46,798 bases of DNA from IMG/VR virus record IMGVR_UViG_2870474514_000003; one strand, written 5' to 3'. Below, piece by piece: positions 42,455 to 46,798 of the stretch. Source of the stretch: a virus (lineage: Duplodnaviria; Heunggongvirae; Uroviricota; Caudoviricetes). The position numbers are program-made. The number at the start of each line of letters is the position of its first letter. Position 1 is the first letter of the stretch.

Positions 42455-45400
42455 TGAATTTTATAACCCATAACGGGCGTCAGAAATGACGCCTTTTTTA
42501 TTGCAGAAAAGCGAGAGGTAATTATGCGTAAACTTTATGCCGCCATTTTGTCCGCAGCCATTTGTCTGGCCGTATCCGGTGCGCCTGCATGGGCGTCTGA
42601 ACATCAGTCCACGCTGAGCGCGGGGTATCTTCATGCCTCGACGAACGTTCCCGGCAGCGATGATCTGAACGGGATTAACGTGAAATACCGTTATGAGTTT
42701 ACGGACACACTGGGGATGGTGACGTCATTCAGCTATGCAGGAGACAAGAATCGCCAGCTGACCCATTACAGCGATACCCGCTGGCATGAAGATTCCGTGC
42801 GTAACCGCTGGTTCAGCGTGATGGCGGGGCCGTCTGTGCGCGTGAATGAATGGTTCAGCGCGTATGCGATGGCGGGTGTGGCTTACAGCCGTGTGTCGAC
42901 TTTCTCCGGGGATTATCTTCGCGTAACTGACAACAAGGGGAAAACGCACGATGTACTGACCGGAAGTGATGACGGTCGCCACAGCAACACGTCTCTGGCG
43001 TGGGGAGCTGGCGTGCAGTTTAACCCGACCGAATCCGTGGCCATTGATATTGCTTATGAAGGCTCCGGCAGTGGCGACTGGCGCACTGACGGTTTCATCG
43101 TGGGTGTCGGTTATAAGTTCTGATTAGCCAGGTAACACAGTGTTATGACAGCCCGCCGGTTCAGGCGGGCTTTTTTGTGGGGTGAATATGGCAGTAAAGA
43201 TTTCAGGTGTACTGAAAGACGGCACAGGAAAACCGGTACAGAACTGCACAATCCAGCTGAAAGCAAAACGTAACAGCACCACGGTGGTGGTGAACACGCT
43301 GGCCTCAGAAAATCCGGATGAAGCCGGGCGTTACAGCATGGACGTTGAGTACGGTCAGTACAGCGTTATTCTGTTGGTGGAAGGATTCCCGCCGTCACAT
43401 GCCGGGACCATCACCGTGTATGAAGATTCTCAACCCGGTACGCTGAATGATTTTCTCGGTGCCATGACGGAGGATGATGCCCGTCCGGAGGCACTGCGCC
43501 GTTTTGAACTGATGGTGGAAGAGGTGGCGCGTAACGCGTCCGTAGTGGCACAGAACACGGCAGCCGCGAAGAAGTCAGCCGGCGATGCCAGCACATCTGC
43601 CCGTGAGGCGGCAACCCATGCGACTGATGCTGCAGATTCAGCACGTGCAGCCAGCACGTCAGCCGGACAGGCCGCTTCGTCGGCTCAGTCAGCGTCTTCC
43701 AGCGCAGGAACGGCATCAACAAAGGCCACTGAAGCCTCAAAAAGTGCTGCCGCTGCAGAGTCCTCAAAAAGCGTGGCAGCTACCAGTGCCGGTGCGGCGA
43801 AAACGTCAGAAACGAATGCCGCAGCGTCAGAACAATCAGCCGCCACTTCTGCATCCACCGCGACCACGAAAGCGTCAGAAGCTGCCACCTCAGCCCGGGA
43901 TGCGGCGGCCTCAAAAGAGGCAGCGAAATCATCAGAAACGAACGCATCCTTGAGCGCCAGTAGCGCAGCTTCCTCGGCAACGGCGGCAGGAAATTCCGCG
44001 AAGGCGGCAAAAACGTCCGAGACGAACGCCAGGTCTTCTGAGACGGCAGCGGGACAGAGCGCCTCAGCTGCGGCAGGCTCAAAAACAGCGGCTGCGTCGT
44101 CTGCCAGTGCCGCGTCAACAAGTGCCGGGCAGGCCTCAGCCAGTGCCACCGCCGCCGGAAAATCGGCAGAAAGCGCCGCATCATCCGCTTCAACAGCCAC
44201 AACGAAGGCTGGCGAAGCCACTGAGCAGGCCACGGCAGCAGCGAGGTCAGCTTCCGCAGCGAAGACATCCGAAACGAACGCGAAAGCGTCGGAAACCCGT
44301 GCAGAATCCTCAAAAACGGCAGCGGCATCGTCCGCCAGTTCGGCGGCGTCATCGGCATCATCGGCGTCTGCTTCAAAAGATGAGGCGACCAGACAGGCGT
44401 CAGCAGCGAAGGGCAGCGCCACGACGGCATCCACGAAGGCGACAGAGGCTGCTGGTAGTGCGAAGGCAGCAGCTCAGAGCAAAAGTACGGCGGAATCTGC
44501 AGCAACGCGCGCTGAGACAGCGGCAAAACGGGCAGAGGATATTGCATCCGCCGTGGCACTTGAGGATGCGAGCACGACGAAAAAGGGGATAGTACAGCTC
44601 AGTAGTGCGACTAACAGCACTTCCGAGTCACTGGCGGCAACACCAAAAGCCGTTAAGGCCGCGTATGACCTGGCTAACGGGAAATACACCGCACAGGATG
44701 CAACGACAGCACAGAAAGGGATAATCCAGCTAAGCAGCGCGACCAACAGCACGTCTGAAACGCTGGCGGCAACGCCAAAGGCAGTAAAAGCAGCCAATGA
44801 CAATGCTGAGAAACGTCTGCAGAAAGATCAGAACGGTGCGGATATCCCTGGCAAAGACACCTTTACGAAAAATATTGGTGCCTGCCGTGCCTTCGGTGGG
44901 TCAGTAAGCACAACAACAGGAAACTGGACGACTGCACAGTTTATCGAGTGGCTGGATTCTCAGGGAGCATTTAACCATCCATACTGGATGTGCAAGGGTT
45001 CCTGGTCTTATGGCAATAATAAAATCATTACTGATACTGGCTGCGGTAATATTCATCTCGCCGGAGCTGTCATTGAAGTAATGGGGATAAAGTCAGCGAT
45101 GACGATCCGCATTACCACTCCGACCACATCCAGCGGTGGCGGAACAACCAACGCCCAGTTTACCTATATTAATCACGGAACAGATTATTCACCTGGCTGG
45201 CGAAGGGACTATAACTCCAGAAATAAGCCAACGGCATCAGAGATCGGGGCGCTACCGTCAGGTGGAACAGCAGTATCATCAGTTAATCTGGCTTCAAAAG
45301 GTCGGGTAGCCGCGCTGACAGACAATACGCAGGGGGCAGCAGGTCTTGAGTTATACGAGGTGTATAACAACGGATATCCAACAACGTATGGAAATATCAT

Positions 45401-46798
45401 TCACCTGAAAGGGATGACAGCCGTTGGCGAAGGTGAGTTACTCATCGGCTGGAGTGGTACAAGCGGTGCTCATGCTCCGGCATTTATTCGTTCACGACGG
45501 GATACGACCGACGCAAACTGGTCGCCGTGGGCGCAGCTTTACACCTCGGCTCATCCTCCTGCAGAGTTTTATCCAGTCGGTGCACCAATCCCGTGGCCAT
45601 CAGATACCGTTCCGTCTGGTTATGCCCTGATGCAGGGGCAGACTTTTGACAAATCTGCATACCCGAAACTTGCAGCCGCTTATCCGTCAGGCGTGATCCC
45701 TGATATGCGTAGCTGGACGATTAAGGGCAAGCCTGCCAGTGGTCGGGCCGTATTGTCTCAGGAACAGGACGGCATTAAATCGCACACCCACAGCGCCAGC
45801 GTATCCAGTACGGATTTGGGGACGAAAACCACATCGTCGTTTGATTACGGCACTAAATCCACGAATAACACCGGGGCGCATACGCACAGTGTGAGCGGTA
45901 CAGCCGCAAGTGCCGGAAACCATACTCATAGTGTCACAGGCGCATCAGCAGTCAGCCAGTGGTCACAAAATGGGTCAGTACATAAGGTTGTGTCTGCGGC
46001 CAGTGTGAATACAAGTGCTGCAGGAGCGCACACTCATAGTGTCAGCGGCACAGCTGCATCTGCAGGTGCTCACGCACATACTGTCGGTATTGGTGCTCAT
46101 ACGCACTCTGTTTCGATTGGCTCACATGGACACACCATCACCGTTAACGCTGCGGGTAACGCGGAAAACACCGTCAAAAACATCGCATTTAACTACATTG
46201 TGAGGCTTGCATAATGGCATTCAGAATGAGTGAACAACCACGGACCATAAAAATTTATAATCTGCTGGCCGGAACTAATGAATTTATTGGTGAAGGTGAT
46301 GCATATATTCCGCCTCATACAGGTCTGCCAGCAAACAGTACCGATATTGCACCGCCAGATATTCCGGCAGGCTTCGTGGCTGTTTTCAACAGTGATGAGG
46401 CATCGTGGCATCTCGTTGAAGACCATCGGGGTAAAACGGTTTATGACGTAGCGTCAGGGGACGCGTTATTTATTTCTGAACTCGGTCCGTTACCGGAAAA
46501 TGTTACCTGGTTATCGCCGGAAGGGGAGTTTCAGAAGTGGAACGGCACAGCCTGGGTGAAAGATGCAGAAGCAGAAAAACTGTTCCGGATCCGAGAGGCG
46601 GAAGAAACAAAAAACAGCCTGATGCAGGTAGCCAGTGAGCATATTGCGCCACTTCAGGATGCTGTAGATCTGGAAATCGCAACGGAGGAAGAAACCTCAT
46701 TGCTGGAAGCCTGGAAAAAGTATCGGGTGTTGCTGAACCGTGTTGATACATCAACTGCACCGGATATTGAGTGGCCTGCAACCCCTGTTATGGAATAA

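Follow-up and report, generated by a model that had tools for sequence, protein, structure and literature searches.

Near the end of the window (the whole stretch of 46,798 nucleotides analyzed here, IMG/VR record IMGVR_UViG_2870474514_000003) lies a long region of low-complexity DNA coding for Ala/Ser/Thr-rich repeats, which raises the question of what protein this region belongs to and how its repeats are to be read. We found that it belongs to stf, a side tail fibre gene for 1008 residues at 43188-46214 on the + strand; all stf and tfa coordinates given below refer to this strand. With high confidence, the gene is an allele of the lambda Stf and Rac StfR side tail fibre genes in a lambdoid E. 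coli prophage, and its repeats are best read as the heptads of a coiled coil whose length varies in seven-residue steps. An earlier note on this DNA had placed a side tail fibre at 43540-46214. The assignment and the end of that interval stood, but position 43540 (residue 118) marks the onset of the low-complexity part inside stf and not the gene start, which is at 43188.

The open reading frame (ORF) spans 43182 or 43188 to 46214 and contains the whole of the noted interval. We used the ATG at 43188 as the start; the in-frame GTG at 43182 is not used by the RefSeq annotation, and the lambda Stf N-terminus is likewise MAVKISG, which fits the start at 43188. A coding sequence is annotated at the same coordinates in an identical locus (L001), and in E. 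coli strain 190 (NZ_CP020520.1), where the locus is 100% identical, the 1008-residue product is annotated from the ATG as a "prophage tail fiber N-terminal domain-containing protein". RefSeq and phage records of this protein name it a (side) tail fibre. An NCBIfam scan of the whole 1008-residue protein matched no family. The Pfam family phage_tail_N (PF08400) matched residues 1-134 over its full profile with an E-value of 5.3e-72, and the lambda Stf structure 9e7m (residues 1-94) was matched with an E-value of 3.7e-52. The N-terminal collar domain comprises residues 1-91 (43188-43460); in lambda, this domain attaches the fibre to the junction of the tail tube and tail tip (PMC12617516). The gene order is J-lom-stf-tfa, as evident from the J C-terminus (PF12421 and PF09327), Lom (PF06316) and Tfa (PF02413), and a full prophage map was obtained from the identical locus L001. 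Because J, lom and tfa flank the gene, the window represents the right arm of a lambdoid E. coli prophage and the gene is stf. Both the type of gene and, in essence, the gene itself are thus already known, its product combining a gp37-like tip with a middle like that of Mu S'. It offers little that is new, being an allele within the textbook lambda Stf and Rac StfR family and already labelled accordingly in RefSeq.

The shaft accounts for the repeats. Ala, Ser and Thr (129, 79 and 41 residues, respectively) make up 72% of residues 111-457 (43518-44558; 347 residues), Pro, Cys, Met and aromatic residues are absent, and Val, Leu and Ile together occur only seven times. The residue autocorrelation revealed z-values of 7.6-10.7 at each multiple of seven up to lag 56, with all other lags at or below expectation. 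In the register table, one core position (d) was Ala in 47 of the 49 heptads and the core position three residues earlier (a) in 35, the remainder being Glu or Lys; Ser directly preceded the a position (position g) in 37 of 49. A register-tracking Viterbi pass returned a single segment, 111-457, with zero phase shifts. Additionally, an AlphaFold2 (AF2) monomer of the isolated shaft was essentially 100% helical, with a mean predicted local distance difference test (pLDDT) score of 71.5 and values of 75-90 over most of its length. The shaft therefore comprises 49 uninterrupted heptads of the form x-x-S-A-x-x-A at 43491-44558; the heptads are clear from residue 111/113 to 457, and the numbering of the lambda coil (102-393) would begin it at residue 102. 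The Ala/Ser/Thr "repeats" are the heptads of the known Stf coiled coil, here of about 356 residues.

The roughly 350 residues of degenerate Ala/Ser/Thr repeats reported previously were indeed present, with every quoted string found, but the repeat unit is the heptad (21 nucleotides) and not a unit of 9 or 13 residues. We found no autocorrelation at lag 9 or 13 (z of about -2), and the strings proved to be pieces of heptads: AAK(S/T)SETNA occurs four times (residues 203, 245, 273 and 357) and the quoted 13-residue string once (residue 304). The artefactual ORFs noted on both strands were also found. ORFs of 109-259 residues overlap the shaft on both strands, because three of the five off-frames contain just one or two stop codons in 1041 nucleotides. 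The analysis thereby accounts for a stretch that yields spurious ORFs and breaks short-read assemblies.

The proposal that repeat-number variation could change fibre length was borne out by the homologues, whose shafts differ mostly by multiples of seven residues. Upon comparison by conserved flanking anchor motifs or pairwise alignment, ten of 15 shaft indels were multiples of seven (14, 28, 49, 49, 70, 105, 105 including lambda, 112, 189 and 224 residues), where chance predicts one in seven. In particular, 15 heptads (residues 304-408, 44097-44411) are shared with K-12 StfR without a gap, whereas they are missing in Ur-lambda Stf as a single gap of 105 residues. The 112-residue deletion in the homologue P0114 is bounded by AAKSSETNA (residue 245) and AAKTSETNA (residue 357), as expected for recombination between dispersed motif copies. 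At the DNA level, the direct repeats of the shaft are dispersed, 66-88% identical and spaced 84-252 nucleotides apart, and four copies of a 15-residue motif are spaced by 126, 84 and 252 nucleotides, each a multiple of 21. Shaft length likely varies through recombination between dispersed, diverged motif copies and not through slippage in a DNA tandem array. Most full-length phage_tail_N representatives in a 50%-identity set carry Ala-heptad shafts, of 25-354 residues, so that the shaft in the window (347) is near the long end. At least 80% of the N-terminus and shaft was matched in 3551 of 5426 complete E. coli genomes, the long form being the common one.

The composition of the core is the feature of the shaft that stands out. 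At about 0.15 nm per residue, the rod would measure about 53 nm, compared with about 43 nm in lambda; the gain over Ur-lambda was estimated at about 15 nm. Alanine-zipper coiled coils such as the E. coli Lpp-56 alanine-zipper region and its variants are trimeric and have Ala at positions a and d, and the shaft likewise has Ala at both core positions. To our knowledge, 49 consecutive Ala heptads far exceed any characterized alanine zipper. We tentatively propose, leaning slightly to the side of doubt, that the shaft is an extreme natural alanine zipper. Such a rod, about 50 nm long, would have essentially no hydrophobic core of the classical kind and would be clamped by folded end domains; recombination between dispersed AAK(S/T)SETNA-type motifs would tune its length in steps of whole heptads. 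The coiled coil of lambda Stf has already been published; an analysis of the all-alanine core, its stability or flexibility, and heptad-quantized length evolution was not found in the literature searched. An alanine-only core over so long a coiled coil is a modest biophysical curiosity and, together with the heptad-quantized length evolution, the only mildly unusual aspect of this gene.

The C-terminal part of the protein was highly similar to the T4 gp37 needle, with its collar, stem and tip. Residues 794-1008 (45567-46211; 215 residues) aligned end to end with residues 28-242 of the 2XGF chain with an E-value of 5e-86, and the Collar family (PF07484) matched residues 798-844 (E = 3.4e-11). 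We found seven His-x-His (HxH) motifs at residues 866, 898, 912, 948, 962, 971 and 980, each of which aligned in register with a T4 HxH motif (7/7). All seven lie in the last 153 residues; 20,000 shuffles gave 1.4 on average and never more than 6. The other 855 residues contain none. The earlier note had described C-terminal H-x-H units; all of its quoted units were present, but their number is seven and not five. The T4 gp37 trimer contains seven iron atoms, each coordinated by one HxH triplet (PMC6957217). This homology supports the HxH motifs here as putative iron-coordination sites, which was consistent with the suggestion that the His repeats are metal-binding.

The T4 gp37 tip subdomain, residues 932-959, contacts lipopolysaccharide (LPS) and OmpC (PMC6957217). 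The 2XGF alignment register and these published limits place its equivalent at about residues 915-942 (45930-46013). This segment was not conserved with T4, lambda or StfR and corresponds to variable columns among close homologues; it is probably the receptor-contact loop, as judged from the alignment, and would be the loop to inspect for host-range prediction or fibre engineering. We also observed that residue 842 (45711-45713), in the motif MR(G)WTIKGK, is Ser here, while it is Gly in at least 90% of 28 close homologues, in lambda and in StfR, and Gln in T4.

Between the shaft and the needle, the protein contains three further modules. Two Phage_fiber_2 repeats of about 44 residues each occupy residues 462-546 (44571-44825; PF03406, two stretches, E = 5.9e-37) at the position of the lambda Stf hinge, and this region contains a direct DNA repeat (D2) of 107 nucleotides that is 74% identical at a spacing of 132 nucleotides. 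Residues 539-722 (44802-45353) make up a module with homology to the S' (G(-)) tail fibre of phage Mu, namely to its variable part, and a shuffled fibre module of about 100 residues with no solved structure follows at about residues 693-793 (45264-45566; phrog_6722, phrog_22609, phrog_37852 and phrog_3299, E of about 1e-43). A PDB sequence search with residues 681-801 gave chance matches only (E > 5). Copies of the C-terminal 469-residue cassette, 87-100% identical, follow not only PF08400 but also other N-termini (PF12571 and PF21446), and such cassettes are clearly mobile between fibres. This agrees with the long-established view that lambda, P2, Mu and T-even phages exchange parts of their tail fibres horizontally.

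We compared the protein with four related systems. The first was StfR of the E. coli K-12 Rac prophage (b1372, WP_000279097.1, 1120 residues), with 100% identity over residues 1-110, 96.8% over the shaft (residues 111-457; 49 heptads in both and no indel) and 85.6% over the needle, which has seven HxH motifs in StfR as well; tfa follows in both. In contrast, the second Phage_fiber_2 repeat is present only in the protein described here, a shorter Mu S'-like middle replaces that of StfR (31% identity over residues 546-793), and the tip loop between the third and fourth HxH motifs differs. A pin-type invertase, in contrast with Rac StfR, was not seen beside tfa in the identical locus L001.

The gpStf protein of Ur-lambda has 774 residues, of which PDB entries 9e7m and 9mgh cover 1-94 (PMC12617516). 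Cryo-electron microscopy, cryo-electron tomography and AlphaFold3 (AF3) revealed a collar (1-91), a flexible linker (92-101), a trimeric coiled coil (102-393), a hinge (394-422) and a gp37-like distal part, and the fibre binds OmpC (PMC12617516). The two genes share their position, the coiled-coil heptad pattern and an adjacent Tfa chaperone, and the two proteins share a nearly identical collar and first 200 shaft residues, the same HxH needle and the same last 40 residues. However, the shaft here is longer by exactly the 15 heptads described above, the hinge-to-needle region of Ur-lambda is replaced by Mu S'-like and shuffled modules, the HxH motifs number seven here and eight in lambda, and the tip loop here is shorter and different.

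The similarity to T4 gp37 (2XGF) extends over 215 residues without large gaps and includes the collar, the seven HxH motifs in register and an identical C-terminus (an 11-residue string), whereas the tip subdomain is not conserved and, outside this part, the protein bears no relation to gp37. The chaperone encoded directly downstream of stf is of the lambda Tfa type here, compared with gp38 in T4. For phage Mu S' (8JU3), residues 539-722 matched chain residues 178-361 with an E-value of 8.5e-69 and residues 490-565 were homologous to the conserved S part; Mu S' residues 361-488 (8ju3) had no significant match in the protein, which does not hold the complete S' variable part. One internal module is therefore shared with Mu, whereas the N-terminus and shaft are of the lambda type and the distal receptor-binding end of S' is replaced by a gp37-type needle.

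Taken together, these comparisons suggest the following architecture. By analogy with the homologues, three chains would form one fibre, in which the N-terminal domain (residues 1-91) would dock on the tail and the shaft (residues ~102-457) would be a parallel alpha-helical coiled coil of 49 heptads with core positions almost all alanine. The two Phage_fiber_2 repeats may act as a hinge, followed by the Mu S'-like module and the second shuffled module. The tip would be a T4 gp37-type needle, in which the seven HxH triplets contributed by the three chains may each bind an iron ion and the variable loop at the distal end may contact the receptor, which is OmpC and/or LPS in homologues. The fibre is presumably expressed, with its tip folded by the downstream Tfa chaperone. 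Fibre length would evolve by recombination, with whole-heptad blocks gained or lost between dispersed similar motifs, and specificity by the swapping of distal cassettes among unrelated phages.

Several points weigh against this architecture. Only seven large hydrophobic residues in 347 are unusual for a coiled coil, and the trimeric state and parallel register proposed for the shaft are carried over from the lambda work; Ur-lambda is the only case in which trimer assembly on the virion, at the gpV/gpM junction, is known (PMC12617516). The AF2 monomer of the shaft folded its helix back into three segments, which we regard as a monomer artefact, as AF3 was reported to fold the lambda Stf helix back likewise (PMC12617516). 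The AF2 monomer of the C-terminal 469 residues, which used an alignment of 29 sequences at 89-99% identity, was unusable (pLDDT of 30). Five of the 15 shaft indels (3, 29, 220, 253 and 337 residues) were not multiples of seven; some homologues in this set are short-read assemblies or partial, and several of the odd cases trace back to entries that are incomplete or of doubtful assembly. The 3-residue deletion sits in a stretch of SSA repeats in the shaft, and coiled coils tolerate a discontinuity of this kind. Finally, IS10 interrupts gene T and J carries a frameshift in this window, and virions bearing the fibre may never form in this strain.

The 72% content of Ala, Ser and Thr and the near absence of large hydrophobic residues would fit a low-complexity linker that is disordered, or some structure other than a helix, and one database homologue is named a "PPE-repeat protein". 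We consider this very improbable, since the strict seven-residue register is kept through all 49 repeats with its phase never shifted, proline is absent from residues 111-457, AF2 predicted a helix with pLDDT values of 75-90 over most of the shaft, the indels preserve the heptad phase, and the lambda density showed a trimeric bundle and a rigid proximal rod (PMC12617516). Marginally less probable still, and largely refuted, is the idea that the shaft is a DNA tandem repeat or contingency locus in which slippage produces rapid, phase-like variation in fibre length. The strong repetition at the protein level and the different shaft lengths of the homologues would agree with slippage. However, the tandem-repeat analysis that the earlier note had named as a check turned up no real DNA tandem array: Tandem Repeats Finder, run on 43000-46798, reported only two trivial arrays of 22-26 nucleotides. 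The motif copies are dispersed and diverged, with none of the head-to-tail, high-identity copies of such a locus, and the Ala, Ser and Thr codons are mixed. The absence of DNA tandem identity and the stability of the long form across large evolutionary distances, with its frequency among complete genomes and the same 49 heptads in K-12 StfR, argue against slippage-type hypervariation. An assembly artefact, which had been raised as a possible objection to the repeat region, is refuted. Many database homologues are indeed partial, being short-read contigs that end in this gene, but at least seven independent complete genomes, which come from different hosts and countries, carry the 3033-nucleotide sequence with 100% identity, and the shaft is collinear with that of K-12 stfR and of the same length. 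The stf-like gene is multi-copy, being found in a median of 2-3 places per genome and in up to 16, and most database homologues are partial because short-read contigs end in it.

A different question is whether stf serves the phage at all in this host. Relative to strain 190 (NZ_CP020520.1), the prophage in the window looks defective. The window contains two identical IS10 copies, identified by Pfam DDE_Tnp_1, Rfam RNA-OUT and 9-bp target duplications. One of them (32119-33447) interrupts the tail assembly gene T and is not present in the otherwise identical strain 190 prophage; it encodes a 402-residue DDE transposase on the - strand, contains RNA-OUT at 33333-33402 and is flanked by the target duplication TGCGCAGTT at 32110-32118 and 33448-33456. 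Additionally, a 1-bp deletion (G, outside a homopolymer run) at 41688 splits J into ORFs at 39060-41735 and 41708-42457, reflecting either a sequencing error or a frameshift that truly inactivates the gene. The stf gene could accordingly be a silent passenger of a dead prophage that has no role in adsorption and matters solely as a stock of fibre modules with which incoming phages can recombine. Both lesions would favour this, as would the occurrence of relatives such as Rac stfR in defective prophages and the clear exchange of fibre cassettes. On the other hand, neither the stf nor the tfa reading frame is broken, prophages that seem intact carry identical copies of stf, and the J lesion could be an error of sequencing. 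We find a silent passenger quite conceivable but incline a little against it. It would be compatible with the side tail fibre reading, as it concerns activity in the host and not the encoded product.

The second IS10 copy (6091-7419, target duplication AGCAAAGTA) is 100% identical to the first, lies in inverted orientation and is located immediately outside the prophage integrase. Together they enclose about 24.7 kb of the prophage (7420-32118) in a Tn10-like composite arrangement, and this segment could be transposable or invertible as a unit. At the start of the window (1-3319), we found a gene pair of low GC content (0.32-0.35) encoding a HEF_HK/HATPase_c protein and a Response_reg_2 protein (PF19191/PF19192), whose families were described in biological-conflict systems. 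A PADLOC scan of these low-GC genes gave no match. The pair adjoins a P4-type integrase (3998-5269, - strand) and replaces a Hachiman-carrying island found at the same position in strain 190.

Directly downstream of stf, tfa (46214-46798) encodes the tail fibre assembly chaperone of 194 residues (PF02413, E = 5.2e-45). Its start overlaps the stf stop (TAATG), and tfa is probably translationally coupled to stf. On either side of lom is a strong terminator-like hairpin with a T-run: the first stands between lom and J (42475-42494), and the second lies 17 nucleotides before the stf start codon (43150-43171); expression of stf would therefore need antiterminated late transcription, as in lambda. 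Close homologues of the fibre protein (P0089, P0099 and P0311) were deposited under the names "PPE-repeat protein", "short-chain fatty acid transporter" and "short-chain dehydrogenase". Within the tfa coding sequence, on the coding strand, a full-length match to Rfam IS009 (229 bits) was present at 46557-46755; this family was probably built from a tfa-derived "intergenic" fragment and is probably not an independent RNA gene.

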